In this document: piece after piece, positions 21,544 to 53,359 of the stretch | How the letters are laid out: each line of letters starts with the position of its first letter | Numbering within the stretch: position 1 is the stretch's first letter | Assembly: GCA_050084515.1 (NCBI GenBank) | Contig: CM114271.1 | Location: 24,118,001-24,182,000 of the forward strand | Source: Blasia pusilla | Lineage: Eukaryota | Length of the DNA stretch: 64,000 bases | Direction of reading: 5' to 3' | Notes under the pieces: model-generated | The model's input: the letters and a program-made list of their open reading frames with translations, nothing else | Told to the model about the DNA's origin: nothing | The model's database searches: none | Program-made: the position numbers and the translations under genes

Positions 21544-22543
21544 TGTCGTGCGCCTACTCTCCTTGAACGTCAATCTCTAGTATTGCGGAAGCGTACGTTC
21601 AGTAGGACACGCTCTCATCGCCGACTTGCATCCAAACGCACCCACATTAGTCTGGCTTTGGGTCAAGCCGTCTTCCAACCCACCGAGTCTTCTACTCGGA
21701 GTCTTATCAAGCTCAACCTTCCTTACTTCCTAGGTTCCCAACATCGCAAGTCCTTCAAGACTTGGAACAGACTTTCTGGTTAGTCCACGAACCTAAAACA
21801 ACACCTGCGCGCCTAGCGGTTCCAACTGTCCAACGGACCTCGTGCGAGTTCCTAACCGGGACCCAAGTAATTGAGTCACGGGTTGGAATCCAAGAGGGCT
21901 CTCTAAAATCACGTCAATAGACTTGGTTCAGGTTTTCAAGCCCAACTCCAAACTCCTGATCCGTTCCATGCCCTTGAACCGCCCCGCGGCGCCCAAAGTG
22001 GGGTTCGAGTCCCAAGCACCCTTGGAGACCTTCCCCATTACTAGTACTTCTGGGGTTCTCCAATAACCCCTCCCCTTTAGAAAAGGATGGTCGAGCCCTT
22101 CATTGTGGCCCTCAACCCGACTCTACTTACAGTCGTTTTCGGGTTGTTTCTCAACCGCTACTTATGCGTTTGTAGAGATCTTTAGTGCGTCTGAACCGGC
22201 TTTCCATAAGCTTTTCAACACACTTATTCATCCCAAATGCATCTTGGTGCTAAAAGTTATGGCCATAAATACAGTCGGAAACTCTCAAACGCAAGTGGCG
22301 TCCCAAATCCGGATTCCTTCCTTTGGCGACCCACTTCCTAGACTTGACTCCTCTCAAGTCTTGATCCGCCTTTGGTCCAGGTTTCTCAATCGCGACCACA
22401 ACCTATGAAACGCGAAGCCTCACTTGCGTCTCGTCTCTTGTCTCTTCTCCGAGACCACTCCAACGCGCAAACCATCTTAGAGTGAGCCCGCTAGTGTTCC
22501 GATGTTCCGCTTTGGCGCTCGTTTGGTCATGAGGGTCGCGACA
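21544..22543 (-). repeat. Chromovirus 3' LTR (1000 bp)
   Basis: TGTCG...GCGACA termini; homologous to 25158-26166 and 35299-36279. Confidence 0.92.
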
Positions 22544-24420
22544 CTCACCCCTCTTTAGAGGTTGATGCCCTCATCAACACAAACCTTTGTTATGTCAAGT
22601 CTATTGGGCAGCCTACCCCTTGACATCGAATTGCGTTTTGGTGGCTAACCCGCAATTCCTCTTAGTCTTAAGTTGTCGCTTTGCACCACTTAGAATTATT
22701 AGCATCTCGTCTTTGATAAGCCTGGACTTGTTCTGAAGAACTAACCTATCAAATAAGCTAACTAAGCGTGCAACCTTAGACTCTTCTGACTCACTCTTGC
22801 AAACATCACACCTATTTACCTGGTCCACAACTCGTACTATTATTGGGTCCCTCTCGTATTCGACTTAGGCGCGTCACTAAGTTTACTTATGTAGCCACAA
22901 GTAAGATCACCCCAAGCCCCAAGACAGACATCATCTGCCCCGCCGACGCTAGGGTGAGCCCGAGTGTAATCCAACACAAGGTCGTATTCTAGGTGCTTAT
23001 CCACATATGAGCTCTCTCTTCAAATACTCCTTGTCTCTCTTCTTGACTTACATCCTAAGCATATGATGAACGACTCATAGCCATACACTACCACATACAA
23101 ATTGCAAGCACTTTAGCATCGAATCTCCAAATCCATGCATTCCTTTATTGCAACACTAGCCTGTTCTAGTTACAATGGCCTTCGGCCCAGATTCCAATGG
23201 TCACAAGTCATGTCCTTAGCTTCTCCCCGTACTAACGTATGTGCTTCTTTTGCGTCCGCTTGAAGTCTCGCAACAACTCTTGTGCGTGTTCCAAATCTGC
23301 CTCCGCAATCCAAGTCGCCTCCTTCACATGGTAGCCTTTCCATTTAACCAAGTACTCATACTTGTTGGCCCGACGCCTCGAACGCAAGATGGTCTCCACC
23401 TCGAACTCCGGTTCTTCATTCGCAATTACCGGTTGCGGTCTCAACACTTGTCTTCACTCGAAGCGCCCATTATCTTGAAGATATTTATTCAACAATGACA
23501 CATGAAAGGTCGGGTGAATCTTGAACTCGTCCGATAGCTCCAACATATACACATCCTCAAACGGATTGGCCATAATCACATACGGTCCAACATACTTGGC
23601 CGACAGCTTCGCAAACAAGTCTTTCGGCACAGTGAGATTCTTCACACTCAACCACACTTGCTCTCCAACTTGGAATCGTACTTGGCGCCGACTCTTGTTA
23701 GCATGCTTAACGTACCTCCTTTGAGCCTTTTCAAGACTTTGCCTTGCTTGCTCTTCCCGTTCTCGCATCTCCGCTAACAAACCTTCTGCCGTCACTTGTC
23801 GTGTCCGTGCCAATGTAGTACCCTCCGAAAGGGCTAGGTCAAGAGGCCCTTCTGGCTCTCGTCCATTTTCCAGAAGAAACGGAGATTCTCCAATAGCAGA
23901 ATGCTTGGTCGAGTTGTAGCAGTACTCTGCCATGCTTAGCCACTTGACCCAATCTCGCTGATCCGCACTCACATAATTCCTTAAATACTGATTCACGATC
24001 AAATTTACCTTTTCAGTCTGCCCAACTGTTTGTGGATGGAAGGCATTGTTGAAACTCAACTTGGTCTTAAACCTTCTGAATAAGTGCTTCCAAAAAGCAC
24101 TGGTAAACTTTGGATCTCGATCTGAAACAATACTCCTTGGCAAACCTTGAGTCCGCCACTAGCCATCCAGGAACAATTGCGAAGTCGTATAACCCGTTGG
24201 GAAATCCACCGTTGGCACAAATCTCGTCAACTTGCTAAACCGATCCACAATCACAAGTATAGCGTTGTATCCCTCAGATTCCGGAAGACTCGTGATGAAA
24301 TCCATACTCACACTTTGCAAGGGTCCTTTTGGTATTGGGAAGGGATGGAGCAGATCTTGTCTCTTATCATAAGAAACTCTGTTTGCTTGGCAGGTCACAC
24401 AGGTCTTCACATATTGAGCA
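21544..24420 (-). mobile_element. Chromovirus (Ty3/Gypsy) 3' fragment: integrase, chromodomain, PPT and 3' LTR
   Basis: Integrase (SMDFITSLP, IVSDRDPKFTS, HPQTVGQTE, KYVGPY, IHPTFHVS) 23454-24410; chromodomain (FEVETIL..YLVKWKGY..TWIAE) 23232-23447; PPT AAAGAGGGGTGAG before the LTR; truncated at about 24420. Confidence 0.93.
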
Positions 24421-27400
24421 GGGGGCTGGTATTTTGGCAGGAGAGAGGAAGAGAGGAGAGTCTCTTTCTAAAAAAAAAGGCCAAATCGGCCTCCTCTCTT
24501 CAAATTTTTTGATATATTTGAAATTTTTGTTTGCTTTCAAATTCATAAAATCTTTAGAAGAGAGTAGGTAGTGGTCCACATTCAGGCCTTAAGAAACCTC
24601 TTTTTTCAGTGGGCGAAAAACAAGTAGACATCATAAGACCATTACAAACATTTTTCTATCACTCTCCATGTGAGCCTAAGTTTCTTCACATTGCCTGTCT
24701 CAGTCTACAGTAACCTGTGCCTAGGGGTATTTTTGTTGGAGGACCATTGGCAAATAATTTGACCAGAAGTAGCGATCTCATCTCAATGAAAGGTTCAAAT
24801 AAAGACTCTAATGATGGTCTCAATAGACTGCGGTGTTTTTCAAGGTTTAACTTCTCGGAATATTTGGTTGACATTATGGATTGACATCTCTTCTTGCAGA
24901 AGAAAGGCTCAAGGAAATGCCTGTAAATGATTGTTGACTCTTCTTGCAGAGGGCATCAATACTCATCATACATTATGGAAAACCATTGGCAACATTGTAC
25001 CAAAATGAGAATTTTTGACCTTCCCCCATTTCCAAGTGTCTATAAAGTATTAATGTGTCATGAGACCTTACCCGGATGCGTATCGGGTACGATGCCAACC
25101 TCTCTTTTTGCAGGTATTGTTGCCTGCATCATGGCCTCCCCTGAATTGCCCCATAATTGTCGCGCCCCTACTCTCCTTGAACGTCAATCTTTAGTGTTGC
25201 GGAAGCATACGTTCAGTAGGTCACGATCTCATCGCTGATCTGCACCCAAATACGCACTCTCGTTAGTCGGGTCTGGGCCAACCAGCGTTCCAACCCACCG
25301 AGTTCTCAACTCGACGTCTCATCAAGCTCAACCTTCCTTAGTTCCTAGTTTCCAAAACACGGCAAGTCCTTCAAGACTTGGAACAGACTTCCTGGTTAGT
25401 CCAAGGATCTGAAATGACACTTGCGCGCCTAGCGATCCCAACTGTTCAACGGACCTCGTGTGAGTTTCAAACCGAGACCCACGTAATTGAGTCACGGGGT
25501 GAAATCCAAGAGGGATGTCTAAAATCGCCTCAATAGACTTGGTGCAGGTTTTCCAACCCAACTCCCAAACTCGCGTTCCGTTCCATGCCCTTGAGCCGCC
25601 CCGCGGCGCCCAAAGTGGGGTTTGGGTTCCAAGCACTCTCGAAGACCTTTCCCCTTACTAGTACTTCTGGGGTTCTCCAATAACCCCCCCCCCTCCCCCT
25701 TGGAAAAGGAGGGTCGGGCCCTTCATTGCGGCTCTCAACCGGACTCTACTTACAGTCGTTTCCGGGTTGTTTCTTAGCCTCTGCTGAAGCGTTTGCAAAG
25801 ATCTCTAGTGCGTTTGAACCAGCTTTCCATAAGCTTTCTAACGCACCCTTATTTAATCCATACAAATCTTGGCGCTAAAAGTTATGGCCATAAATACAGT
25901 TGGAAACTCTCAAACGCTAGTGGTGTTCCAAATCCGGATTCTTCCTTTGGCAACCCACTTCCTAGACTCGACTTCTTTCAAGTCTCATTCCGCGTTTGGT
26001 CCAGGTTTCTTGGTCGCGACCACAACATCTGAAACGCGACGCCTCGCTCACGTCTCGTCTCTTGTCTCCTCTTTGAGACTACTCCAACGCGCAAACCATC
26101 TTAGTGTGAGCCCGCTAATGTTCCGATGTTCCGCTTGACATTCGTTTGGTCATGAGGGTCGCGACAATAATGAAAGGTGTATGCTCAAGATCAACTTTGT
26201 GAAATGTGAACACACGAGACGATAATTGAACCAAAAGATTGTTAGCTGTCTAGAGTAAAGAGGAACTGATGTCCCTTCATTCAGATCCTAAATCTGAGAA
26301 ACCAAGAAGCTACACCTCCCAACCCGTCGGAATTTTAAAGGTTGCAACTCTTGCAACCCGTCGGAATCTGATGGATTTCACCCCTTGCAAGCAAGCTCAC
26401 CATAATAAAGGAAAGGTTTTGAGAAGTGATTCCATTCCACCCTGCACCCACGAAAATCCAACAGGTTGGGAATCCGAAATGGCAATCCTACAGGTAGTAG
26501 GAATCCAACACGTCTTAGAGAAGAAAAGAAACCTACGACTAGTTTGACGATACTAGGGGAACAAGCCAAGAGTGAAGAAGCTCGCCACAATGCCTCACAA
26601 GTTGGTCTCACAGGGAAAGAGTCCGATCACTCAAGCAGCCAACTTGTCAGAATCCGACAGCTTGCTTGGAAATGGTTAAAAAGTTGTAGTGGTCAAAAAG
26701 TGGAAAGTTGCAACCCTTCGGAATCAGACGGGTTGCAAAATAAACCGGGGCTGGTATTCTCGTAGGAGAGAGGAAGATAGGAGAGGAAGAGAGGAAGAGA
26801 GGAGAGTCTCTCTTCAAAAAAAGGGGCCAAATCCGCCTCCTCTCTTCAAAACTTTTTGACATATTTGAAAATTTTGTTTGCTTTCAAATTCATGAAATCT
26901 TTAGAAGAGAGTAGGTAGTGGTCCACGTTCGGGCCTAAAAAAACGTTCTTTTTGCAGGGGGTGAAAAACTAGTAGACATCATAAGACCACTACAAACATT
27001 TTCCCATCACTCTCCATGTGAGCCTAAGTTTTTTCACATTGCCTCTCTCAGTCTAAAGTAAGCTATGCCCAGGGCTAGGTTTTTTGGAGGACCATTGGCA
27101 AATAATGTGACCATAAGTAGCAATCTCATCTCAATGAAAGGTTCAAATAAAGGCCAACTTTGTGAAATGTGAACAGGAGATGATAATTGAACCAAAAGAT
27201 TGTTAGTTGTCTGGAGTAAAGAGGAACTGATGTCCCTTCATTCAGATCCTAAATCTGAGAAACCGAGAAGTTGCACCCCTCCCAATCCGTCGGAATTTTA
27301 CACGTTGCAACTCTTGCAACCCGTCGGAATCAGATGACTTGCACCCCTTGCAAGCAAGCTCACCATAACAAAGGAAAGATTTTGAGAAGTGATTCCATTC

Positions 27401-28871: not shown

Positions 28872-29124
28872 CTATAAAGAAGTAGGTTGGAAAAAATGTC
28901 AGCAACAAGAAAGAGCTAATTTTAGTATGCAACAACAAGAACGGTATACTATCACAATGGTGACACAATGTGCAACTCGTTCCCAAAGAACTTCGCTTAA
29001 TCCCAGAGAACTTAGTTATAGTCCTAACATTGGAGCAACGTGTCGGAGTCCGACGGGTTGTTTTACAAGTGTTAGTGAATTTTTTTGCCATGAGCAACCC
29101 GTCCGAAGGCCATAGATTGCTGGA

Positions 29125-29880
29125 TGTTGTGCGCATACACATCGCTACACAACATATATCGCTGTCACCGAACACACACACAAACACGCACGATCCCATG
29201 CTAACTCATGGCATCCAAAAAACAAGACAAGAAGTACCAAATATCTCCAATTAAAGTAAGATCCAATCTCTATCTACACAATCTCACACCATAGCTCTCA
29301 AAGGTGTGCACTCTCTCTCATGTCAAACCAAACCCACTCTCCTAATGAGAGGCTTGGGTTACACTCACAAGGCAAGGGACCATAGCTCCGCCGCCTTATG
29401 CCAAGAGGTTCAACAAAGAGAGAATGAGCTCTCAAGCTCTCTCTCCTTGGGATATATACCCCTCCCCTCTCCCAAGCTCTCTCCATGGTAACCTATTCTC
29501 ACAAGTCACCTCCTTGGCTCTTGACCTGATGTAGGAGGTCAAGGGCCATATACTAAAAATTAGAAAGTCGATCATATACTCAAAATGGTACTTACCTAAA
29601 ATAGCAAGTTCCTCAATATGGCTCCAAATGAGCCAAAACGAAGGGGAAACCTACTCTCGCAGGTTTCTCGGGGCCTCAGCAGGTCATCCTCGACCTCCTA
29701 GGCATGTCGTACACTACTCTTGAAGACGCTCTACTACATCTCACCGATCTATCCTGAAGGACGTGACAATTATCGTGCGCATATACATCGCTGTCACCGA
29801 ACACACACACAAACACGCACGATCCCATGCTAACTCATGGCATCCAAACAACGAGACAAGAAGTACCAAATATCTTCAAT
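29125..29880 (-). repeat. 3' repeat block Y-X-Y of copy 2: Y 29125-29251, X 29252-29768, spacer AT, Y 29771-29880
   Basis: The two Y copies match apart from a 17-bp insertion and a few substitutions; X matches 39927-40444; purine tract AGGGGGGCG (sense) at 29881-29889. Confidence 0.93.
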
Positions 29881-30065
29881 CGCCCCCCTAGTTGGTGGTT
29901 AGGTCCCTCTAACTCCAGATAGCCATCTATCCCTACCTACCATGACATACATCTCTCGGACGCTAAGAGCAAGAAGGCCGGGTGCTCATGTGGCCCCATC
30001 GTTAGTCGCCTTCCTGTCATCCATGTCAGAGAAAAAGTCGGGATCGAACCTACCTAGTATCTCCT

Positions 30066-30809
30066 CTATGTACATCTGGGACACATCCATCGTCCCCGAG
30101 GAACCCTAGTGAGAGGTGGTGTCAGACATGCCATATGCCAACCTCTCGAACAACCATCACAGACTAGCATTGTGGCCGCACCACGGGCAAAACCACACAA
30201 CATACAACGCAAGCCTGCATGAACTACTGCTAAGCTCGGATCCAATGTACTATCAATGTTAGGAAGGTGACATGGTGCAAAATTACGCACATGGTCCTTC
30301 CATACCATACCATCGCGTCCCTCCAGCAAGAGAACACCGGATGGCAAAACGTCACGCACTCTCGGGATAGTGCGCCCTGCAGTCACATCCAACGTCGTCG
30401 GTGCCGTCTGCTGCAAGTAGACATTATCTCCCTGATGAAACCTCCCGATAGTTGGTCGATAACCACCACCCCGAATAGTCGCATACCTCAACGTATCTCG
30501 ATGCTGCGCAATCGCCAAGTTCTCGAACGCCATGGGCATCACTCTCCGAAACAACTCAGCCCTCTGAGAACATGCTTGCACCCATACATCTGGGTCATCA
30601 AGGTCCAGCACCTCACCAGCATCTCGACGAATGGCCGCAGGTAAATGTGGCTGTCGGCCATAAAGTAGAAAGTACGGTGAAAAAGACGCTAAGGATGCAT
30701 GCCTGCTGAATCTGTATCCCATCGCCAACCATGGCAAGTGGAGGTCCCAATCTCCTAGGTGCCCTCTCTGCAAGCCATACTTGCGTAAACCCCTCTTCAT
30801 TGTTTGCAC
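30066..30809 (-). pseudogene. Integrase C-terminal part ending in a PHD finger (copy 2)
   Basis: CMLC..MLVCDGCSRGWHMACLTPPL..VPRGRWMCPRC, a C4HC3 pattern, in frame with the integrase. Confidence 0.93.
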
Positions 30810-33439
30810 AACTCTCTCCGCTAATCCATCCGCCTCAGGATGATCTCACGAAGTCGTGCGGTGGTCGATCAACGCGTGATCACACAAGGCTTGAAACTCA
30901 CTGCGAAACTGGGTACCCTGGTCTGTCAACACCTCAGCCAGTGCGCCATAATGACTCATCACTCTGTCAAGGAAGACATAAGCTACTCCCTCACTCGCTT
31001 TGTCAGGCAATGCAACCAACTCGATCCACTTCGAGAAGTGCTCGACCATCACCAACACATAACGATTGTGACGCTTCGTCAAAGGCAAAGGTCCTGCAAA
31101 ATCCAAACTCCATCTATACCCTAAGCCCATGATCGGTAATGGATGCAACTGTGGAGTCAGAGCATTGAACGATGCTCAGACCCGATCACACACCATGCAC
31201 CTGGCAACAAACTGCTGAACGTCAGTCTGCATGCCTCGCCACCAATACTGAATCTGGAGCAAGCTGTACGTCCGCTTCACCCCAAAGTGACCCAACTCCT
31301 CGTGGGCATGCTGTGCTAGTGGTGCTCTCTGCGAAGGATGCGGCACTACGCGTACTCTGCCATCCTCCCAAACCCTCAAAACATGTGTCCCCTCCCAACG
31401 GAACCGTCCGGCCCACTGTAGGATCCGATCCCGCTCTCTAGCATCCACGGTGCTCGCAACGCTGCCAGTACGAGGTACTCCAAGACTACTCCATCATCAT
31501 GAATATCTCTACCACTTGTCGTCTCCTCACTGGCCTCGGGATCCAAGGACTCTCCACTAGACCTGGCCATCAAAGTCTCCACACTCTGGCTCTCCATAGC
31601 CAACATGCCTAAATAGGTTGACGCGTGCCATCTTGGCACGGACTCCTTATCACTCTCTCCATGCCATCGAGCTCCAGTCGCATCTCGCTGACTCAGGCAT
31701 GGGTTACGACTCAACTCATCTGCATCTTGGTTGAGCATCCCAGGTCTATGTACCACCTGAAAATCATACTCCTGCAACAACAAAGCCCATCTCGCAAGCT
31801 TCCCTGTAAGCTTGTCGGACTCTATCAACCACTTCAGAGGTTGATGATCAGTGATGATGGTAAAGGGGTTGCCGAATAAGTAACACTTGAAATGCAGCCA
31901 AGCACTCACCCTCATACAAGCTGTACTTCGCCTCTGTAGCATTTTTCGAGCGGCTAGCATAAGCCACCACAAACTCTCTACCCTCATCATCATGTTGGGT
32001 GAGCACCGCTCCAAGCCCCAACATGCTCCAATCTGTGTGCAACTGGAAAGGATGCCCCCTAATCGGTCTCCTCAAGATGGGCGCACACGTCAACCTGTCC
32101 TTGAGCAACTAAAATGCTTGCTCCTGCTCATCCCCCCAGTGCCACTCCTGATCCACCTTGGTCAGCAAGGTCAGTTGCTTCGCAATCAAACTAAATCCCT
32201 TGACGTATCGCCGATAGAAGTTCGCCAATCCCATGAATGCGCGAACACGGCTCACATCTGTAGGGCGTGAAATTCGTGAGATAGCCTCTACCTTCATTTG
32301 CTGAACACCAAGGCCCCTTGGGTATATCGTATGACCCAAGTACTCAATCTGGTCGTAGGAGAACTTGCACTTGCCTGGATGTAGCTTCAGCCCATGTAAT
32401 TGCAATCGTCCAAACACCTCCTCTAGATGTCGCTCATGCTCCTCAACGATGGTGCTAAAGACTACAATGTCATTTATATAACACCTAGCAAAATCCAGAC
32501 CAACCAAGATCCTATCCATGACCCTCTGAAACTCAGACGGGGCGTTCTTTAACCCAAATGGTAAGAACCGCCATTGGTACAAATAATCCTTCCCGTGAGA
32601 ATTGATGCCCAAAAATACCGTCTTCTACATGTCCTCCAATCTGATAGGCAATTGATGGTATCCGACTCGCAAATCCAATGAACTGAAGACCTTTGCGTGA
32701 CCAATCGCATCAAAGATCTCCTTAGGGGTGGGCATGGCATACCTATCGAACTTCGTCTGCCAATTGATAGGTCGGTAATCCCCACACATCCGCCTATCCG
32801 TCCAGTTGCCATGCACATCCTTCTTGGCGGGCATGACAGTGGTAGATGCATACTCCCCATGCGACATCTCCACTAGTCTTGCTCTGACCAAGTCTTGGCT
32901 CCTACTCTGAATCAGAGCCCTCTCCATATCATTGTACCTGTAGGATCTTCGGAAGATCGGCGTATCACTTGATAACTCAATGCGGATCCCCGGTCCCTTC
33001 AGCGTACCCAAATCCTCCATGCTAAATGCAAAGCAGCTCCTATAACTCCTCAGGAACTGATGTATTTGGCACCGCTCTCCTCCTATCAACTTAGGGCCCA
33101 TATCTGGCTCCCAAGTCTCCATCGTGACTACGGTAGGACTCTCCGGCATGGGTATCGGTGGTTGCTATGGTGCAACCCCGTCTCGAACAACAACACTCGG
33201 CCGCTCTCTTACAGCCAACTGCAAACTCTGATCTCCTCCACGTGCAGTGCCCGAAACCACGCTCGATGTTGTGGCTATCATCTCCTTGCGTACGAGCAAA
33301 ACATCCCAAGAATTCCAAGGGTGTCTCTCCCGATCTCCTCGGGTCTCGCCCCCAGCCACTGCCTCCACCGTCTCGGTAGGCATGGGGCTCACCAACGCAA
33401 CCGTTGTGATCTGTCGTGATCTCATACGACGCTGCTCAC

Positions 33440-34400
33440 CCCCTCCCAAGCTGAGGATCCATGTCAAGCACTTCAGGTCCATCGCCTGACCCAAGACATG
33501 GCGTCGTGATGCCTCTGACACTGACTGTACTGCCGTCACTCCTCTGGGAAATCCCATCGCTCGCTTTCTCTCGTCGGCGTTGGGCTCCACCAACCGCTAA
33601 ACCTGGTCATCCCAAACCAAGCCAGGAACGGCCTCCTTGTATGCATAGGAAGCGGGAAAACTCACAAACGTGGGCAAGGCTACCCTCGGCCTGCCTACCC
33701 TGTTGACCATAGTCAACAGTGGTCGATCATCGTGCCTCACTTCCTGTGATCGACGACCTGGATCCCGAATGGAATCCACTAACAAATGGGAGGGGCGCTC
33801 CACTCTCGCATACGCCCTCCATAACACCGCATGGGGCACCAAGTTGGTCCACCATAGACGCGGGCGATGGGCTCTAGAACCTACACTCGCCGCATCCAAG
33901 AACACTGCTGGGCCGATCCAGGCACGCACCTGCTGAGCACTCGTCACCACCCGTGACCTAGAGTATCCTAAGATCGGTGCATACTCCAAAATGTAGGCTG
34001 GAGAACGAGACTGGTGCTCCTGCAAGTGCCGTAAGACCCTCAACATCTCCCAAAACAACCTGGACTGAGTGTCAGCCAACCCGCTGCCTGGTCCACTTGA
34101 TTGGCCCTGACATGACCAACCGGCAATGACCAAATCAATGGTCCCTACCCGCTCTAAGTCCTGCGCCCCCAACAACGAAATATCCCTCGATAGGGAACTC
34201 TGGTACCCATGTACTGCGAACGCAGACAATAAGTCGGGAAAACGTAGGCGGAATTGTGCCACATGTGGTAGTGAGACGCGCCTTGCAACATCATCACTCT
34301 CCACATATAGGTACTGTTGTACTCACACTCTTGCCTGCAAAACAACAGCTAACCCGGTGCTAATCCCTCCAAAGAGATCTAACACTCGAATACCCTCCCC
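33440..34400 (-). pseudogene. DNMT3-like C5 methyltransferase domain of copy 2
   Basis: VLDLFGG, IAGWSCQGQS, RLFWEMLR, ILEYA, SRAHRPRLWWTNL, ERKRAMGFP, RRHVLGQAMD; PC and ENV motifs altered in this copy. Confidence 0.9.
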
Positions 34401-35298
34401 CTGGATACACCACACAATGGGTGTGGTATCCAAGGGTGTCATCGTAGCACTCCGTGCTACCTCGGGTTCCTCAGGCCCGTCATGCTCCGGTGCAAACGCT
34501 TTGCTTCACGCGGTCTGCACGTGTTCATCTGCCAATCGTCGAAGCTCCTCAGTCGAGCCCCACATCGGTACCTCTCCTCCACGGAATGATGCACCTACCA
34601 TAACACTCCTCTCCATAGAAATGTCAGGAACGGGAGTATCCTCTGCATTGACATGTCCCTCAATCAAATCACTAGGCCAAGTGATGGCACTGCTAAATGT
34701 TGCTAAGGTCGCCATCTCTCCTGGTCGTTGCTCGATCACTGCACCTGTGAATCGAAGGGGTAATGAGCTAAGACGCCCATCTCTTGACTGCCATCCTGGT
34801 TTGTAGGATGGTGACTCCTCCTAGTAATCCAGGGAAAACCCCATCGGGTATAACACTGCTCCACCAACCAAGACGTCGTAGGACTGTGCATTAGTCACTA
34901 TCGCCTTGGCGCGCACCACGGACTCATATGTAGGATGTCCCAGGAGAATCTTCACCAGGACCTCTTTTCAGATGATATACTGTGTGGTACTCGCTCCACC
35001 CAAGGATGTCTGTATCCGGAATGGACAACGCTCCACATCAGCTCTCGTCAAGCCCAATCCTCTGAATGACGCTTTCCCCAACATGAGGGGTTGCGCTCCT
35101 GAATCCAACAAGACGCGCTACGGACTAAAATCTCTACCTCCAGGACTCACCAACTGGAAGACCTCTCCTCGGTTATCCAGCAACACAACACCAGGAGAAG
35201 CCATGGCACGCTCTATCGCGGGTCTAGCGGGCATCTCCGCCATTCTAGCAGCCGCAGCCTGCCATGAATCTGACGTGGATGGTTCGAGCATTCGCTCC

Positions 35299-36279
35299 TG
35301 TCGCGCCCCTACTCTCCTTGAACATCAATCTTTAGTATTGCGGAAGCGTGCGTTCAGTAGGTCGCAAACTCATCGCCGATCTGCACCCAAACACGCACTC
35401 TCGTTAGTTGGGTCTGGCCAACCGGCGTTCCAACCCACCGAGTCCTCAACTCGGCGTCTCATCAAGCTCAACCTTCCTTAGTTCCTAGCTTCCAAAACAT
35501 GGCAAGTCCTTCAAGACTTGGAACAGACTTCCTGGTTAGTCCAGGGATCTGAAACAACACTTGCGCGCCTAGCAATCCCAACTGTTCAAGGGTCCTCGGG
35601 TGAGTTCCGAACCGAGACTCAAGTAATTGAGTCGCGGGGTGGAATCCAAAAGGGATGTCTAAAATCGCCTCACTGGACTTGGTGCAGGTTTTCCAACCCA
35701 ACCCCCAAACTCGCGTTCCGTTCCATGCCCTTGAGCCGCCCCGCGACGCCCAAAGTGGGGTTTGGGTTCCAAGCACTCTCGGAGACCTTCCCTCTTACTA
35801 GTACTTCTGGGGTTCTCCAATAACCCCTCCCCTTTGGGAAAAGAGGTTCGGGCCCTTCATTGTGGCCCTCAACCCGACTCCACTTACAGTCGTTTTCGGG
35901 TTGTATCTCGGCCACTGCTTATGCGTTTGCAGCGATATTTGGTGCGTTTGGACCGGCTTTCCATAAGCTTTCCAACGCATCCTTATTTGCTCCAAATGCA
36001 TCTTGGCGCTAAAAGTTATGGCCATAAATACAGTCGGAAACTCTCAAACGCTAGTGGCGTTCCAAATCCGGATCTTCCCTTTGGCAACCCACTTCCTAGA
36101 CTCGACTTCTTTCAAGTCTCATTCCGCGTTTGGTCCAGGTTTCTCAGTCGCAACCATAACACCTGAAACGCGACTCCTCGTTCGCGTCTCGTCTCTTGTC
36201 TCCACTTTGAGACAACTCCAACGCGCAAACCATGTTCCATGTTCCGCTTGGCACTTGTTTGGTCATGAGGGTCGCGACA
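35299..36279 (-). mobile_element. Chromovirus solo LTR nested between gag and protease of copy 2
   Basis: TGTCGCG...CGCGACA termini, 5-bp TSD GCTCC (35294-35298, 36280-36284). Confidence 0.95.
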
Positions 36280-39200
36280 GCTCCAAGGGGAGGTCCATCA
36301 CCTCCTCTGCAATCACCTCTGTACGTGATGCAGGAACTCCAACTCCACGCTCACATAGCGACGCGGCCAGCCGAGAAGCCTTGACGGGCGTACCCCCCGA
36401 CGTCATAACATCGGAAGCAGAAAATAAAGGAGTGCGGTACACAACGGTGGCCGCCCCCAACAATGTGCTCGACACATGCCCCTCCTGAGCATCAACAATA
36501 GGAGTCGTTGCACTTGCTTCTCCCATCGCCCTCCGTGCCTGCACACCAACAACATCACCAACTCTCAAGGAACTTTGATCAGGACCCATCCATGGGGTCC
36601 TCATCGCTTCGGACAACGTGAAAGGCTGAGGAAGCCTAGTCTGTTTTCTGGCTTCCCCTCGATGTGGATCCAACTCTGTGGCTGCTCCATGCGTCACAAC
36701 TACGGCGGCCTCCATCTGGGCAACCCTGCACATCCAACCAGGATCCTCCAGATCTCTAACTGCTCCATATGATGTCGATACCACGGATCCGGCATCGGGT
36801 AACCTCAATGCCATAGCGGCAATCTGGTCATGCAGCTGCTATATCTGAGCAGCCATCCTAGCCTCACGTCCGGCCTCTCCCTCGGCGCGTATAGGTGGTG
36901 GTACTCTACCTCCTCCACGGGCAGCTCCACCACCCTGTCGGGCAACTCCAGCTCCTCGTCCCCCAACGAGACCACCTGGTGCACGATCTCTAGGCCCACC
37001 TGGATCGGCTACTCGCTCTGGTGCCCTCTCTGGCCCTCGGTCCGAACGTAACTCAGGATGCAAACTGAAACACTTGGCGCGTGTATGACCATACCTCTGA
37101 CAATAGTCACACTGATAACCTCCGGGTGCAACACCATCTCCTCCTCCATGCTGAGGCATACATCCATGACCCTGACGAGTGCAATGGCGCTGATGATGGG
37201 CTCCACCACATGACCAACAAGTAATAGTAGGCGGTTGTTGTTGAGCCGCATATGAAGGCGCAGGTCTCTGTGCCACGGGCTCCTGGTATCTTCCCTGAGC
37301 TCGTGGTGCCATAGTTGACCTATCTCGGAGTCCACGTTGCTGCACAGGTGGTGCAGCCAATCGCGACTACTCTCGCCGAGAACCCATGATGGCTTACGCT
37401 CTCCTCTGCCATGTTGCGCTCAATGTTCTCAGCGGTCCTAAAAACATCTCTCAACGTAGGGGAGGTGTTCATAAGAAGCACCCTCTCCCGCACCCGTGGC
37501 CGTAGGGTCTGGTCCAGCATCGCGTACCATGACTGGATAGCCCGAGCCTTTGTCACCCCCTGAGTGACGTTGATCAACCGGCGCAAGCGAGTGTAAGCCT
37601 CATGTAAACTCTCACCCGGGTGCCTCCGGAAGTTGTGGATGCTCCGCAACTTTTCCGTCCGTACTCCTTGGTAGCTCGCCCTCAACTCAACAAAGAACTC
37701 AACCACGGGGTTGAACCTGGGACAAACCCGACTAGACGGTGCAACTGCTCCAGTGAGAGTGACCCCTCCTTAAACATCACTAGTGGAAGAGGAAGTAGCC
37801 TACCTTGACTCCTACTCATCTGGGAATGGCTCCCTCCATGACACATAGTGTGGGTCGTAGTAGAGTCGCCATGCCTCAATCTCCTGGGCATATCTGTGGG
37901 AAAACTCATGGTAATCGTCCATGGGTGCCCCCTCTAAATGCTGGAACATACCGTTCCATGATGTAAACGGGTTGAACTCTCTAGAGTTCCTGGCCCGCTG
38001 GGAGTCGCACCAACTCTTAAACTCTGCTATGAAATCGTGCAACTCAATCGTACCTACTGCACCTGAAAACCTACGCGGTCCTCTACCCCGGTCGTCCATC
38101 TCGTACGCCCAACTGGTAGGACCACTCACAATGTGTGGCGATGTTCTCACAAATTCCTCTACACCCTCCCCCTCGTCTGACGATGACACAAAAGGAGGTC
38201 GAGGTGGTCCCTGAAGTGAAGACCCCCGGAACCTAACGCCACTCCGCGTAAAACCTCTAGAGCTACTCTCGGGTTCACCACCTCGCCTCTCAAAGTCCCG
38301 AACGGACGCCGTGATGACCCTCGTGCTCTTCTCACCTGATCACTCTTGCCTCGCAAGTAATCCCTCAACCACTCATCCCAAACATGCGGCACTCGATCTA
38401 CACTCTCCCTCCCCGAGACATGTAACGTGCGGCAATAAGCGGCGTGGTGAGGCAAATCGATCAAGCTATCATCTCATTGACAACCTACCCTCAACTCCGG
38501 ACATCCCACACAGGTCCATGTCCCCTAAATCACATACATAAATAATGCTCTCAGCATCCACACACCCAATATCCCCAAATAAACTACCCAAATCCGAGAA
38601 TCCCTCACACGTGCAGGGTAAAGGGCCAGAATGGGTAACATGAACACATGTCGATGTCGCTCCTCAGCAGCTGCGAATCTCGACCCCAACTCGGTCGTGG
38701 AGACAAATCCTCCAATCAGCAAGTCATACTCCTCCCGTACTAATGTTGCTCAAAACTCCTCGATAGACGGTGCAGTTCCAGTGGAATGGTACGGCGTTGC
38801 AGGCGGCACGCAACGGCTACGAACGGCACGGCCCTCGATGATGGGATGTGGCACTCGGCGGCATACCCTCCTTATTCAACAATAAACCCACACTCTGCTT
38901 CACAATGCCAGAGCGGCTCCGCGATCAAGATGGTGCGGTGCCGCCACGAGTGGCACGGCGCGGCAACCGGCGGCGCGTTGCGGCTACGGGCGTCACGGCA
39001 CGGTACCCGATCGTCGTTGAGCGGCTACGAATCACAACATAGCAGCAGGAAATCAAAACTCAAACAAAATAACAGGAGGTCATAAGCCATCACAGGTTGA
39101 TGACGGTGGCGGCCAAAACAAAGTACGTGATGGCGACGCAAGTCCGAGAATCAATGAATGTTGTGGAAGACCCTCCACTCCGTAATGGCGGCAATGGCAA

Positions 39201-39926
39201 CCAAGGATGGACAACGGACGGTGACGGTTGGCGGTTGATGGTGACGAACGAATGGTGACGGTGACGGTTGACCGTTGGTGGTGATGGTTGACCATCGACG
39301 GTGATGCATGACCGTTGACGGTTGACGGTGACTATGACGGCGACGGCCGCCGCCGGTGTGGCGGCTGGTTTAGGGTTTGCACAATTTAACCCTAAAAATT
39401 GCCTAGCAATGGCATTTTTGCAAGATTGACCATAACTTTTTGCTCGCAACTCCAAATTGTGCATTCTTTGTTGCACAACTTGCACAGCTTCACAATCTAC
39501 GCCAACATTAAAAAATATTTGGAATCAGACATTTGAGTAAAAACTGACGGGGACTTTCATAAAGCCCAATGTCTCTTTCTTCTACCCAACATTCGGCAGC
39601 GCTTTCGCGCTGATTCCTCCCAAAAAAAATGTAAAACCTATAAAAATGCAAATCAAGAAGCGACATGGTGCTCCCAAAAGCACCGGCATGGGGCAACCCT
39701 CCCCCATACTCAATCCCTATCAGAAATTGGGCAGCGCTTCCACACGCCACTCTTCCACACGAAAAATCGGCAAATGCAAAGAACAATCCAAGCAACCCTT
39801 GCTCCGATGAGCACTCCCATGAGCCGTTGAACGGGGAACACGGTCCGCAACCTGCAAAAATAGCGAGTGACCAGCGAGCTCCCCCATGAAGCTCTCTCAC
39901 TCTCTCATTCTCTCATTCTCTCTTTG

Positions 39927-40444
39927 TAAAGTAAGATCCAATCTCTCTCAACACAATCTCACACCGTAGCTCTCAAAGGTGTGCACTCTCTCTCATGTCA
40001 AACGAAACCCACTCTCCTAATGAGAGGCTTGGGTTACACTCACAAGGCAAGGTACCATAGCTCTGCTGCCTCATGCCAGGAGGTTCAACAAAGAGAGAAT
40101 GAGCTCTCAAGCTCTCTCTCCTTGGGATATATACCCCTCCCCTCTCCCAAGCTCCCTCCATGGTAACCTATTCTCCCAAGTCACCTCCTTGGCTCTTGAC
40201 CTGATGTAGGAGGTCAAGGGCCACTTACTAAAAATTAGAAAGTCCATCATATACTCAAAATGGTACTTACCTTAAAATAGCAAGTTTCTCAATATGGCTC
40301 CAAATGAGCCAAAACGAAGGGGAAACCTACTCTCTCAGGTTTCCCGGGGCCTCAGCAGGTCATCCTTGACCTCATACGCTTGTCCTCCACTACTCTTGAA
40401 GACGCTCTACTAGATCTCACCGATCTATCCTAAAGGACATGACA
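39927..40444 (-). repeat. 5' terminal repeat X of copy 2, containing a TATA box
   Basis: 518 bp matching 29252-29768; sense TATATAT at 40133-40127; no Y sequence adjacent. Confidence 0.93.
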
Positions 40445-40718
40445 TGGCTCAGAGCAGCCCATGGTTGGCTTAGAGCACCCCGTCGCATTCAGACGGGTTG
40501 CATCATTCCAAAAATACAAGGAAAAGCATAAGCACTTGCAACCCGTCGGAACCCGACGGGTTGCATTCACCCAATGGAGACTTGCGGTAAATTTGCAACC
40601 CGTCGCTTTCAGACGGATTGCACCACCGAAATCTTCAGCTCAGGCAATCCAACGGGTTGTATGCAGAGACGCAATCTGTCGGAGCAAGACAATTTGGATA
40701 TGGATTTAGAGCCCTTAC

Positions 40719-43700
40719 TCGGATTTTACTCGTCGCGGATTGGAGTGGGTACTCGTTCTTGATGACCCACGATTGCGCCGTCCTCCACTTCAACGACCTC
40801 TTGACGCACTGCACGTTGAAGAGCTTGTCCTCGCTCCCTCCAATCAAAACCAAGAAATAGCCCTTGTCATTGAGATAAGCGTCTGCAAAGGAAAACATGA
40901 GCGCGATGTGGTAATAAGAAAGAGGGACATTCCAGTCTGGGACACCGTCGGACGGATTCTCGTCCCACAAGCGCAACTTTGAGGGCAAATCAGCGACGAG
41001 GAGATCCATTGTCACCTACTCGACCTCCCCATGGACCATCCAGGGAGCGTGCCCGTAAGAAAGAGGGACATTCCAGTCTGGGACACCGTCGGACGGATTC
41101 TCGTCCCACAAGCGCAACCTCGAGGGCAAATCAGCGACGAGGAGATCCACCGCCACCTCCTCGACCTCCCCATGGACCATCCAGGGAGCGTGCCCGTTAC
41201 GTTGAAGCTTCTGTCCCAGCGTTGTCAATTTATCGATGGCGGGTGTTGACGCTTGGGAACTGAAACTTTTTAGCTCATCCAGAAGATTCGTGTAGTGAAT
41301 GATGACGCTTGTCCGGGTCGTTGTTTCTCTATGTCTTCCCAAGGATGATGGAGTGTATTCCACATCTTGGTCTGCTCCCTGGGACAAACATGGCGCCTCT
41401 CGCTTCCGCTTCTCCCGAGTCTACGGTCGGCTTGTTGGGGTCTTTATTACCTCAGACTCTAGTGGAGTTTTTTTGGCGGAGGACCTGGTCCGACCCTCTC
41501 TCCCCGCTTGCGCGGATGATTCCGCCTCTTGCCTTGAATTCTCAGCCTCTTTTTGGGAAGACTCGGCCTCAGAATTCTTCAATCCCCTCGCCTTGGCTTG
41601 GAGACCCACTATAGATTTGTCCTTGGCGGTGACGACCTTGCACACCAACTCCGCTGTCTCGAGGGCTTGCTCCTCCGCATCTCCTTCAAAAAAGTCTTCA
41701 AGCTGCACGAAATTGGGGATGTAGTCCCTACTTGCGGCCACTGCATCATAGAGCAGGCGTAGATTTTTCTCGGTTATGTCCTCAGGGTCGTTGAAGTCCA
41801 GCCAGATGGGGCAATTCTCCACCTCCCAGTCGAGAACATGCTTTGAGCCATCTCCATGTCGTACATGGAAAATGTCTCTCCATGAGGCGAAGAAGCCCAC
41901 AATTTGCAGGCTGCCCGTATTTTTTGCCACGTACCTGCATTCTTACAATGGACAATGTACCTGAACACCATGTGTTGGGCAGCTCTTAGTCGAGATGCAT
42001 CGGCCGCCTGCTCCTGAAGATCTCACTTTTTCTTTGCGAAATCCCTTTTCTTCGCCTCTATTTCTTCATCAAGGTCCGCCTGAGGGAGGATGTGATCCTT
42101 GAACATCGTCCTGAAGCCTGGGTTTTTTATGGGCTTGTCATGGATGTCATCCAGCAAAAGTTCAAAATCTTCAGCACTCTCCACGGTTGCTTCCTCCGGA
42201 AGTGGCTCTATTTTTTTCAGCTCCGCTTGGAGATCCACGAGCATGGACTTCTCGAGAAGCCGCAGAGCATCCCAGAATGACCATTCACAGAGCCAGTGGG
42301 AAATCACTGGATCAGAGACACCCGGAGGATGGTGTGCCACCCTCTTTTGGGCCTCTATGCCCTCGAGACTGATTTCCATAAGTCGGATTCTCCTAAATTC
42401 TGAAATTCCACACACGGCAAATTGATGGACGCAGTCGAGAGACACTTTCTCCCCAATCCGACCCTGCGGATCTTCATCCCTCTTCTACTGGGGCTTGATT
42501 ATCGCCTTCAGCTCCTTGTAGAAATCGGGGCCAAGTTCGGGGTTGAGAATGGCGATGTACCGTTGCATCTTGCTTGCAGTGTACTTTGTAGCTGCAGATA
42601 CTGCAGATTGGATGAACTTAGTACGCTCAGACACAGACACTTTCTCCCTCCGCTCCAGCTCCAATGAAGCGCTCTTCTTGGCGGCATGTATCTTCGACCA
42701 GCAAAGGATTGTCATGGCTGCATCTTGGGAAATAAATGTATTTGCCCAAGTCTTGTTTTTTTTATTTGAGCCCCCTTCGCCTGCATCTCATTTACAAGGG
42801 CGTCGCCCAAGAACCCCTTGTACTCTGCAGTGTACTTCGTAGCTACAGATATTGCAGCTTGGATGAACTTAGCACGCTCAGACACAGACACTTTCTCCCT
42901 CCGCTCCAGCTCCAATGAAGCGCTCTTCTTGGCGGCCTGTATCTTCGACCAGCAAAGGATTGTCACGGCTACATCTTGGGAAATAAATTTATTTGCCCAA
43001 GTCTTTTTTTTTATTTGAGCACCCTTTGCTAGCATCTCATTTACAAGGGCGTTGCCCCAAAACCCCTTGTACTCTTCCAGGTGCGTTGTTAGCACTTTAT
43101 TCACCCGATCGCAATCCTGGATCCAGTGGTGGATGACATTCCCCTCGGATACAATCCTGCACATCCAAACTCAATATAAGAAATTTTGCAAGCTACATGG
43201 GTTCCTGCAACTTGTCGAACTTCGACAGGTCGTCACACCTCATGTTCGGAATGGTAACTACGAGCTAAATTTTGCAACCCATCGGAGTTCGACGGATTGC
43301 ATTTAGATTTGTGATTGCCTGGTTTCAACCCATCGGAGTCCGATGGGTTGTCAGATAATATGTATTCAGAGAGTGGTCTCCGTAGGAAAAGTGAACATAT
43401 CAACCCGTCGGAGTCCGACAGGTTGCGCAATTTCAAGTAAAGCTGCAATTTGACGCCAAAAATCAAGCTCCCCTACTTTGATCACCTTCCTGTGCCAGCG
43501 AATGCAACCCGTCGGAGTCCGACGAGTTTCTTTCGGCCAAAAACATCCTAAAAACAACGGCCAGTCGAGCAACTCGTCAAACTCCAACGAGTTGCTTTCG
43601 GCCAAAAACATCCTAAAACAGCGGCCAGCCGAGCAACTCGTCCGACTACGACGAGTTGCTTTCGGCCAAAAACATCCTAAAAACAGCGGCCAGTCAAGCA

Positions 43701-45155
43701 ACTCGTCGGACTACGACGAGTTGCTTTCGGCCAAAAAAATCCTGAAAACAACGACTAGTCAAGCAACTTGTCGGACTCCGACGAGTTGATTTTGGCCAAA
43801 AATATCCTCAAAAATAGCGGTGAGTCAAGCAACTCGTCGGGCTTCGACGAGTTGCTTTAAGGCATACGATGATTTGTTACCACTAGTTAAACAACTCGTA
43901 GGAGTCCGACGGTTTGGAACAATCAAAATAAAGGAAGAGGAAACTTACGTGTTCATGGCATGCATGGCCATCTCCACCGTCGCCATGTGATGAGGGTATG
44001 GATGAAGCATGACTGCCTTCACGCAAAAATGCGCCTCCAATGAGTTTTGGCGCTCCTCTATAAACTGGGTCCACGCCATAAACCTGTGGTTTCCATCCCA
44101 GATGAAGAAATACAGGTTCCGCATCCAGCTGAATTCCGTCCCTTCAATCGCCCTTCTGAATTCCCGATCTCTCATCCTCCACAATGTGTCGAGCGCTTCC
44201 AAGTCCTCCTCTGTCACCAGCGCTTGGGTTCCATGTTCATTGTAAGGCTGAACATAGAACGGAGGGAAGTTGTTGACATAGGATGTTGTTATTGTCGATT
44301 GTTTCAGCTTCGCAATATCCTCGTCAGACTGAATTTTGCGGACGTACTCCATTGTCCACAATCCGCAAAGTGGAATTCTCGGGGCGTTCTGGCCCTCCAT
44401 CAGTGCCATCTGCTTTACCACCTGTCACAATGGAGACAAGGTCAATAAACTACACTGAATCGCCAATGAATTGCAACATGGGCCTTCACATAACTCAAAG
44501 AACAAAGATCATATCTTACCCGCTCGAAGATTGGGTCGGTGTCTTGGCCCGCCAATTGCTCTGGGACAGCAGCTGGCAAGTCCGCTGGAAACTCGTCAAT
44601 CTGATAGAGGTCAATTTCTTCCGCCGGGCTAAGAGACGATGAAGACTGCTCTCCTACTTCTTCAGAGATATCCACCATCTCCACGCTGGCAGTCCTCATG
44701 ACCTCATCGTCCGTCACTTGAACTTTGCCCATTTCCTCAACCGTTTTCTTATTGATTGTGTCCCCGGACTTCATCGGAGACATTTCTTGCATCTCAACTC
44801 TTTCGGTTGGACCGGCCGGACTTTCTTCAATGGCAATCGCTTTTTCCCTTTGAGCTTTTTCCAATTCTGCTCTCCTCACCAACGCGTCCAGACGCTGCTT
44901 TGCACACTTCTCCTCGGCGATCCTTTTCTTCAAGGCCTGCGACGCCTCAGCCTCTGCGTTCTATTTTTCAATCGCCTCCTTAACACGTTCTGCAAGAAGC
45001 TCCTGCCTATGCATCTCCGCTTCCATTTCGCGCTCCTCGATCTCTTGCTGCCTTATCTCATTGGCCAAACGAGGCCCTGGAGATGGTGACGTAGGAGTCT
45101 TGGACTTGGGAGTGAAGCTCCTTGCCTTGCTTGCTTGAGTTTTTTTCCTCGTCAT
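40719..45155 (-). pseudogene. Left-arm gene: coiled-coil N-terminus, ParB-like motif, N-terminal half of an amino-methyltransferase-like domain; exons about 45155-44520, 44421-43949, 43156-40719
   Basis: GT-AG introns at the same positions as in the right-arm copy; FFIWDGNHRFMAW; VDLLVADLPS..AYLNDKGYFLVL..SWVIK; frameshifts and internal duplications. Confidence 0.75.
43525..43900. repeat. Intronic minisatellite of ~61-bp units, each with a GCAACTCGTCGGANTCCGACGAGTTGC-type palindrome
   Basis: About six units of cggccaaaaacatcctaaaa..gcaactcgtc..gacgagttgcttt; inverted counterpart at 52670-52775 and 61788-61890. Confidence 0.85.
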
Positions 45156-52775: not shown

Positions 52776-53359
52776 TGTCATGCGAATCCCCATCGTCATA
52801 CAACATACATCGCTGACATACCATACTCACATACATACATAACATAGACGAGAGTATCCACAAACGCAAGTGTACCACAACTAAAATCCGTGAAAGACCT
52901 ACTGTCATAAAACACGTTTACAATCACATACAATTGAGCCAAACCCACTCCACGATGGGAGAATCTAGGTCGAAGCTTGGAAACACCATAGCCAAGAGCT
53001 CTACTCACTACCAAGGCTAACTCCCCAAGCATAGCAGGCTCAACTCAAAGAACTGATGTTCTTTGAGGGCAAGCCACCTTATATCCTCCAACCTAAGAGC
53101 GGGCCCCTCTTTGGGAAAGTCACCCCCAAGTGAGTAACCCCAACCCTATGTATGGAACAAAGACATCTCTACCAAGCCACTACGGTCCTACATAAGGAAT
53201 GGCCTCTACCTGACACTATACTCTACGACATAATCCGTATGGTCATGGAATTTTTCGTGCGAATCCCCATCGTCATACAACATACATATTTGACATACCA
53301 TACTCACATACATACATAACATAGACGAGAGTATCCACAAACGCAAGTGTACCACAACT
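52776..53359 (-). repeat. 3' repeat block Y-X-Y of copy 3: Y 52776-52882, X about 52884-53250, Y 53253-53359
   Basis: Y copies near-identical; X matches 61423-61787; purine tract AGGGGGCG (sense) at 53360-53367. Confidence 0.93.

Follow-up and report, generated by a model that had tools for sequence, protein, structure and literature searches.

Split direct repeats in a DDE-integrase Ty3/Gypsy family of Blasia pusilla and their probable origin from end-joined cDNA

Introduction

Retroviruses and long terminal repeat (LTR) retrotransposons integrate, in the textbook account, at the termini of their linear cDNA, and circles with joined LTRs are seen as by-products. An element of Blasia pusilla leads us to ask whether a DDE integrase can also insert a molecule whose cDNA termini were joined beforehand. 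It lies at positions 29125-40444 of a stretch of 64,000 nucleotides (contig CM114271.1 of assembly GCA_050084515.1, positions 24,118,001 to 24,182,000 of the forward strand), hereafter called the window. The element encodes the integrase of a Ty3/Gypsy retrotransposon, but its repeats are arranged in the order X-internal-Y-X-Y, that is, as the split direct repeats of retroelements that use a tyrosine recombinase. The original prediction, made from the letters of this locus, proposed that such an order is expected from a two-LTR circle cut inside an LTR. Here, we describe the anatomy of this element and of its relatives, and weigh the mechanisms that could have produced it.

Results

The split-repeat layout is a family trait

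The element, which we call copy 1, reads on the minus strand as flank, X5', about 10 kb of broken open reading frames (ORFs), polypurine tract (PPT), Y1, the dinucleotide AT, X3', Y2 and flank (Table 1). All these parts, from the first X to the last Y, lie where the original prediction had placed them. The two X copies are 94.8% identical over 518 nt, the two Y copies are 95.9% identical over 98 nt, and the outer ends of the element are TGTCATG... and ...CACAACA. Copy 1 is a dead, degenerate element, with many frame breaks and a nested insertion of 1.86 kb. Close to the end of its Y2 (29125-29165) there is an internal duplication of 17 nt that is not in Y1 (127 versus 110 nt).

Two further copies are present in the window, both on the same strand as copy 1. 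Copy 2 has X at its 5' end (7638-8153), not Y, and unrelated DNA before this X. Copy 3 is about 70% identical to copy 1 internally and its repeat sequences are different, yet its parts follow the same order, X'-internal-PPT-Y'-X'-Y'. Both complete copies in the window carry the double-Y form.

Outside the window, we took a census of 80 metagenome loci (numbered with an L below) with relatives of the integrase and its C-terminal PHD finger, these being the best 80 of 516 loci confirmed from 600 candidate stretches, using X and Y probes specific to each family. Directly 3' of the integrase gene we found Y-X(-Y) in 23 loci, a single Y followed by unrelated flank in 27, and a Y cut by the contig end in one. 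Five loci matched the probes outside these classes, with X only (L006, L028, L072), with a deletion form (L023), or with the Y-X-Y block of a neighbouring element (L077). The probes had no match in 24 of the 80, which mostly have little downstream sequence. Together, the window and the metagenome loci hold 24 Y-X-Y blocks, and 18 distinct ones once we drop six with a shared flank, which represent one locus in different samples. These 18 belong to at least three families: the type of copy 1, the type of copy 3 (Y about 115 nt, X about 340 nt), and a third type (Y about 180 nt, X about 290 nt).

No canonical YX...YX element occurs in this sample, as Y lies upstream in none of the 13 distinct X copies that adjoin a primer site; ordinary paired YX LTRs, which could have been the norm of the family with copy 1 as an oddity, were not seen. 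Where the 5' end is known (n=11), six elements have the order X-internal-Y-X-Y, five have X-internal-Y, and none has the mirror form X-Y-NN-X-internal-Y. The split-repeat layout is a trait of the family, far beyond chance, and not a one-off.

Reverse-transcription signals define an LTR that the integrated ends interrupt

In every family, Y starts at the first base after the G-run of the PPT. Inspection by eye showed no tRNA-type primer-binding site (PBS) after X5'. Instead, the 30 nt after X5' hold the reverse complement, 9-17 nt long, of a motif internal to X in nine of 11 copies (copy 1, 15 nt; copy-3 family, 10-17 nt; third family, 12-16 nt). None of 200 shuffles equalled the match in seven of these nine copies, copy 1 included. 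The two copies with no such match, copy 2 and L009, are both degenerate. A TATA box was recognised in copy 1, in L005 and in the third family, and in these the motif follows it at a distance of about 30 nt. The sequence of the motif differs among the three families and its complementarity is nevertheless kept, which amounts to covariation. Judged from its sequence, the arrangement is self-priming of the Tf1/Sushi/Tcn1 type, with a putative transcript start at the motif. In X'5 of copy 3, a copy of the primer-site sequence stands just upstream of the self-primer motif (61610-61580: CTCAAAGAAC ... TTCTTTGAG), so that the putative transcript start falls within an inverted repeat able to form a hairpin; X5' of copy 1 (40125-40089) has a similar purine/pyrimidine inverted repeat near its motif.

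A PPT at the start of Y and a primer site at the end of X imply that U3 (the unique 3' region of the LTR) begins at the Y start, that U5 (the unique 5' region) ends at the X end, and that the transcript starts inside X. With an LTR of the form Y-NN-X, the standard strand transfers would give a linear cDNA YX-internal-YX, whose termini differ from the ends found in the genome. This bears out the earlier view that the real LTR is Y plus X. The two equal LTRs bounded by PPT and PBS that are usual in Ty3/Gypsy elements are absent, and the integrated ends fall inside the LTR that these signals define.

Integrated ends and the internal junction carry the same motif

Target-site duplications (TSDs) of 4 bp were found at the X start and the Y end of all 10 elements with both ends known, perfect in seven and agreeing at three of four positions in three (Table 1). 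They map to the positions at which the original prediction had expected them. TSDs at these positions are the signature of a DDE integrase acting on TGTCATG... and ...GACA ends. We considered, and rejected, a site-specific insertion without TSD into the satellite that surrounds the window copies: the family-wide end of Y (...GACA) gives copy 3 a perfect AACA, and the TSDs of nine further elements, as well as the unrelated flanks in the metagenomes, also rule it out.

The two outer ends also meet head to head within the element. At this internal junction (J), which is inside U3 and 110-180 nt downstream of the PPT, exactly 2 nt separate the end of Y from the start of X in 18 of 18 distinct Y-X-Y elements, so that what had been noticed in copy 1, two outer ends joined by 2 nt, holds throughout. 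The arms of J form a 7-nt inverted repeat and fit CA[CT][GA]A[CT]A / T[GA]TCA[CT]G in 17 of the 18, and the sequence of the spacer is free (GC in eight elements, AT in four, AC in two, GT in two, TC in one, AA in one). Arm differences between paired copies are often CpG transitions, from CACGACA to CATGACA or CACAACA. Copy 3's own J arms have diverged; the RNA reads that cross there have family-typical arms in 38 of 38 and 68 of 68 cases, and the version Y end-GC-X start is found in further reads and in one DNA contig. Behind a PPT-like run, J also occurs in L014, L016 and L057; it is present in L038 and L039 as well, though there no PPT-like run was seen ahead of it. None of these five loci showed a second Y in the next 1.5 kb or in what sequence was left up to the contig end.

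The joint between X3' and Y2 behaves differently from J. It consists of the X end and the Y start exactly in 11 of 18 distinct elements, and its length is shifted in the other seven (+19 in L011; -1 in L079; -2 in L037, L043 and L077; about -7 in L064; about -214 in L059). L077 and L078 have an X-end variant in common, and their joints differ. Since this joint is variable while the transcribed J spacer is constant in length, it looks as if it were newly formed at each transposition by end-joining and not copied from the parent. In sequence it is the two termini of the expected cDNA put next to each other, with a spread of lengths like that left by end-joining and met in the junctions of two-LTR circles.

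Coding content and relatives

On the minus strand, the Pfam domains of copy 1 follow the order weak gag zinc finger, C5 DNA methylase, RVT_1, RT_RNaseH, Integrase_H2C2, rve and C-terminal PHD. Copy 3 has an identical domain set, and both match PF00145. The Ty3/Gypsy pol order is present, with reverse transcriptase (RT), RNase H, and an integrase with H2C2 zinc domain and DDE core, and the catalytic residues D, D and E are kept in the integrase homologues. Both strands of copies 1 and 3, which are degenerate, hold 99 stop-to-stop ORFs that reach 75 aa or more, and none of these matched a tyrosine recombinase (PF00589/Phage_integrase) with E up to 0.01. The assignment to Gypsy elements with a DDE integrase, made at first sight of the sequence, is confirmed by these domains. 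At the integrase C-terminus no chromodomain was found, and a PHD finger stands in its place. REM1 of Chlamydomonas is likewise reported to be a Gypsy element with a PHD finger.

Marchantia polymorpha has the closest proteins, which are 75-76% identical to the methylase piece and 78-81% identical to the piece with integrase and PHD finger. The integrase-PHD search gave 196 proteins at E up to 1e-3, with relatives in Calypogeia, Klebsormidium nitens (53%), Haematococcus, Pleodorina, Tetrabaena, Chromochloris and many metagenome contigs; the chlorophyte proteins are 46-48% identical to that of copy 1. The 26 methylase relatives come from Marchantia, Calypogeia, Sphagnum and metagenomes, and none from Klebsormidium. 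Among the best solved relatives of the methylase piece of copy 1 are the catalytic domains of DNMT3A/3B, to which the likeness is weak (E about 3e-4). A phage sequence collection gave no match. The element is a degenerate Ty3/Gypsy retrotransposon of a green-lineage clade, whose members have a self-priming site and a DDE integrase that ends in a PHD finger, and often harbour a Dnmt3-like methylase. Among the metagenome relatives, the methylase lies upstream of RT in P0043, as in the window copies, and between RNase H and integrase in P0070; this difference in position suggests more than one capture, or a move inside the clade.

Transcription

Reads from two RNA runs with the species label of the best-matching DNA data span all of copy 3 at 90-99% likeness and nearly all in sense. 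Most differ from copy 3, so they derive from other members of the family, and they carry intact J junctions. In both runs, position 61627, just upstream of the X' TATA box, and the equivalent place in X'3, is the lower end of 13 molecules, which may reflect either an RNA 3' end or the point at which expressed relatives diverge from copy 3. A stretch of 995 nt in the integrase region (53992-54988) is missing from some reads (15 and 26), replaced by nine other letters; its ends are not intron-like, and these reads probably represent an expressed deletion derivative of the family. Joints that seem to go back from 61787 to 52776 were considered as circle junctions and rejected, as they are the internal Y-GC-X junction of other copies laid on the diverged copy 3. 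A contig joint from 52656 to 61865 was likewise rejected as an empty site, because it falls in the satellite and is not clean.

The surrounding window

A satellite whose 65-bp unit contains a palindrome with 12-nt arms (GCAACTCGTCGGA CT CCGACGAGTTGC) occupies 43504-43858 and is also found in the flanks of copy 1 (about 40450-40700 and 28900-29120) and of copy 3 (52600-52775 and 61790-62100). Its motif has 100 matches with up to two mismatches, clustered at 26-29 kb, 40-53 kb and 61-63 kb. Within this unit, copies 1 and 3 sit at the same place, 4 bp apart and in the same orientation, which is at most weak evidence for a regional insertion preference. Just beyond the 5' flank of copy 1, at 40915-41197, a 141-bp unit is tandemly duplicated with 95% identity.

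Between two direct repeats of about 1 kb (21544-22543 and 25158-26166) lies an ORF (23457-24158, minus strand) whose product has an integrase SH3 domain like that of Tf2-1, and the region 21544-26166 looks like another, short LTR element. The insertion in copy 1 is a relative of these repeats (84-89% identity), perhaps a solo LTR from the same family. The sole host-gene-like signal among the long ORFs of the window is an ORF piece at 15439-16032 on the plus strand, with a domain of the pre-mRNA splicing factor Slu7 (E 1e-15).

Table 1. Coordinates of the three copies in the window, and target-site duplications of all elements with both ends known
Feature	Positions	Strand	Remarks
Copy 1, 5' flank (TSD), 4 bp	40445-40448	-	GCCA
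Copy 1, X5', 518 nt	39927-40444	-	begins TGTCATG
Copy 1, TATATA within X5'	40133-40128	-	
Copy 1, putative transcript start / self-primer motif within X5'	40103-40089	-	CTCATTCTCTCTTTG
Copy 1, self-priming PBS	39912-39926	-	CAAAGAGAGAATGAG; adjoins X5'; reverse complement of the 15-nt motif in X
Copy 1, gag-region ORF piece	36842-37366	-	weak zinc-finger match, under the Pfam cut-off
Copy 1, nested insertion, 1.86 kb	34629-36487	+	foreign to the element proper; copy 2 is without it
Copy 1, C5 cytosine DNA methylase piece (Dnmt3-like)	33600-34322	-	upstream of RT
Copy 1, reverse transcriptase (RVT_1)	32112-32624	-	Pfam
Copy 1, RNase H (RT_RNaseH)	31379-32071	-	Pfam
Copy 1, integrase	30849-31493	-	H2C2 zinc domain 31179-31493; DDE core rve 30849-31175
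Copy 1, integrase C-terminal part	30069-30845	-	includes catalytic E region HPEADGLAER; PHD finger at end
Copy 1, PPT	29881-29889	-	AGGGGGGCG; G-run; adjoins Y1
Copy 1, Y1, 110 nt	29771-29880	-	U3 start
Copy 1, internal junction J	29762-29777	-	CACGATA-AT-TGTCACG; Y end and X start head to head; 2-nt spacer AT at 29770-29769
Copy 1, X3', 517 nt	29252-29768	-	
Copy 1, X3'/Y2 joint		-	TTTA/ATTG; X end and Y start, exact
Copy 1, Y2, 127 nt	29125-29251	-	ends CACAACA
Copy 1, 3' flank, 4 bp	29121-29124	-	TCCA; 3/4 positions agree with GCCA
Copy 2	1-8153	-	truncated by the window start; identity to copy 1 about 80%
Copy 3	52776-61787	-	related family, same layout
Copy 3, X'5	61787-61423	-	
Copy 3, PPT		-	between X'5 and Y'1
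Copy 3, Y'1	53359-53251	-	
Copy 3, X'3	53250-52884	-	
Copy 3, Y'2	52882-52776	-	
Copy 3, TSD, 4 bp	61791-61788 and 52775-52772	-	AACA
Perfect TSDs			copy 3 AACA; L005 ACTA; L009 TACA; L025 CATA; L040 GGTC; L069 CCAA; L071 TGCA
TSDs matching at 3/4 positions			copy 1 GCCA/TCCA; L066 GCAT/ACAT; L003 GGTT/TGTT

Discussion

Our results suggest that the split repeats probably arise through joined cDNA termini, a cut by the integrase at a CA-NN-TG site internal to U3, and insertion by the DDE reaction. The termini of the linear cDNA YX-internal-YX would be joined, most simply as a two-LTR circle. The integrase would then cut both strands after CA at the CA-NN-TG site of the LTR proximal to the primer site, leaving recessed CA-3'OH ends and 2-nt overhangs, and the permuted linear molecule would be inserted in the ordinary DDE manner. 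X-internal-Y-X-Y would be the only permutation able to replicate again, because it alone keeps the promoter-bearing X upstream and a full U3-R downstream. The circle cut in the upstream LTR that was originally proposed fits the geometry, the TSDs and the X3'-Y2 joint; cutting such a circle at random does not fit the count of mirror forms. A two-LTR circle has two identical J sites, so random cutting predicts the mirror form as often as the observed one, and a ratio of 6:0 calls for a directional step. In the standard scheme of reverse transcription, the upstream LTR, built on plus-strand strong-stop DNA, is the first to become double-stranded. The integrase may load first on this LTR, which would provide the direction.

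Several points weigh against this mechanism. Both the circle and the use of the upstream site are inferred, and no extrachromosomal DNA, circular or linear, has been observed. Cleavage of a CA-NN-TG site inside U3 is proposed by analogy with other integrases. The absence of the mirror form against six elements of the observed form, among the 11 with known 5' end, has a binomial probability of 0.016 in a small sample and is not what random cutting of a circle would give. In addition, single-Y loci are frequent in the metagenome contigs (27, versus 23 with Y-X(-Y)), and five of them are X-internal-Y elements with TSDs, perfect in four and at three of four positions in L003. These may result from deletion between the two Y, from assembly collapse, from a one-LTR circle, or from cutting at both LTRs.

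The last of these origins is also open to a route that needs no circle. The integrase would synapse the J arms in the upstream LTR of the linear cDNA, cut there, and attach to the target the start of X together with the end of the Y fragment that the cut releases, and host end-joining would seal the X end to the Y start in the chromosome. The geometry, the TSDs and the heterogeneity of the joint are equally accounted for, the 6:0 asymmetry would be explained if the upstream LTR is double-stranded first, and cutting of both LTRs would yield the X-internal-Y form of the five elements. The same sequence data fit the circle equally well, and each integration by this route would leave a chromosomal double-strand break, with a costly and obligatory repair; we regard it as rather unlikely, if worth serious attention. 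A further option dispenses with the cut inside U3. A read-through RNA that includes the X3'-Y2 joint would be reverse-transcribed directly into a permuted linear X-internal-Y-NN-X-Y, as in the models for DIRS, PAT and Ngaro elements, and the integrase would act on true termini. The layout is indeed identical to the split direct repeats of tyrosine-recombinase retroelements as the cited accounts present them (PMC4157794, PMC7192593), and RNA depth over Y'2 is not zero, though these reads could stem from Y1 of other copies. Yet with a PPT at the Y start and a self-priming site at the X end, standard transfers give YX LTRs and never copy Y2; neither a purine tract before X3' nor a primer site after Y was found; and the length of the X3'-Y2 joint varies in seven of 18 elements, even inside one sublineage, whereas that of the J spacer is fixed. 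We therefore hold templated permutation to be improbable.

The same split direct repeats might invite the idea that a tyrosine recombinase, either supplied from elsewhere or once encoded by these copies and since lost, inserts the circle site-specifically as in elements of DIRS order, and the position of copies 1 and 3 within 4 bp in the same unit of the 65-bp satellite could be read in its favour. This is contradicted by 4-bp TSDs in 10 of 10 elements, by metagenome flanks that are all different, and by a conserved DDE integrase with no recombinase domain in the 99 ORFs, and we give it almost no weight. Nor do we find it credible that the layout is a local accident of copy 1, produced by misassembly, by unequal recombination or by a solo LTR nested in it. 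The age of copy 1 and the insertion within it could be read that way, but the same layout is present in copy 3 and in 16 further distinct elements, from at least two other families and independent assemblies, and within each element the divergence of the X pair matches that of the Y pair.

The repeat order in itself is not new. The original prediction knew of no description of it in a Gypsy element, but the legend of Fig. 4c in de Mendoza et al. (2018, Nat Commun, PMC5890265) already gives KnitGypsy-Dnmt3 of Klebsormidium nitens DIRS-type repeats (A-coding-B-A-B) together with Gypsy domains. As in the window, a Dnmt3-like methylase is embedded in a Gypsy polyprotein; the window elements have their closest proteins in Marchantia (75-81%), not in Klebsormidium. 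Section 9 of that article and the legend give no TSDs, junction anatomy, primer sites or mechanism. In the literature that we searched, supplements not covered, the name KnitGypsy-Dnmt3 was met only in that article, and we found no TSDs, internal att-like palindrome, self-priming, mechanism or bryophyte occurrence for such elements. What appears to be new here is the anatomy, the proposed mechanism and the spread across the clade, with bryophyte-like families showing split repeats and green algae having relatives of the integrase-PHD protein.

Other known systems share single traits with the family. PAT-like, Ngaro and TOC elements, which have the DIRS order, show the split direct repeats A1-internal-B1-A2-B2 in the accounts cited above. 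They encode a tyrosine recombinase and lack a DDE integrase, whereas the window family encodes a DDE integrase, makes a TSD of 4 bp and showed no recombinase. To our knowledge, these elements leave no TSD on integration. The self-priming site seen in nine of 11 copies recalls Tf1/Sushi and plant Gypsy elements of the Tcn1 clade, whose PBS is described as complementary to their own transcript start and not to a tRNA (Neumann et al. 2019, PMC6317226); these have canonical LTRs and usually a chromodomain, in contrast to the permuted repeats and the PHD finger at the integrase end of the window family. In Chlamydomonas, Gypsy-7a_cRei also has a PHD finger in its Gypsy polyprotein, and the legend of Fig. 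6A in Craig et al. (2022, PMC9940879) mentions "LTR subparts" and a left LTR without the last 8 bp of the right one, which may be related to the permutation seen here.

The closest parallel for the proposed chemistry comes from retroviruses (foamy virus, PMC1180852; HIV-1, PMC1905944), whose integrases have been reported to cleave two-LTR circles at the palindrome where the LTRs meet. There too, a DDE integrase cuts an internal CA...TG palindrome to give ends competent for integration, and by analogy this makes the proposed cut plausible. The retroviral palindrome is the joint of the true cDNA termini, the resulting provirus is canonical and the reaction is a side route; the palindrome of the window family lies inside U3, so the provirus is permuted, and the route would be the obligatory one.

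It is conceivable, at somewhat short of an even chance, that in a whole green-lineage clade (chlorophytes, Klebsormidium, liverworts and mosses) end-joined circular cDNA is the obligatory substrate of integration, opened by the DDE integrase at a palindromic att site in U3. The "dead-end" two-LTR circles would then be productive, and split repeats would have arisen before, and independently of, tyrosine recombinases, so that the clade would be a living model of how Gypsy-like retroelements could become DIRS-like ones.

Overall, a family with a DDE integrase reproducibly leaves a provirus in which the joined cDNA termini are internal and the boundaries are set by a site inside the LTR. If the proposed mechanism holds, LTR finders that expect equal TG..CA repeats beside PBS and PPT would misplace the boundaries of a family widespread in bryophytes and green algae. 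As the family is transcribed and has its own DNA methylase and PHD reader, it is open to study in a model liverwort lineage. If the proposed mechanism is true, it would provide a natural system in which end-joined cDNA is a productive intermediate. It would also point to a possible origin of DIRS-type split repeats.

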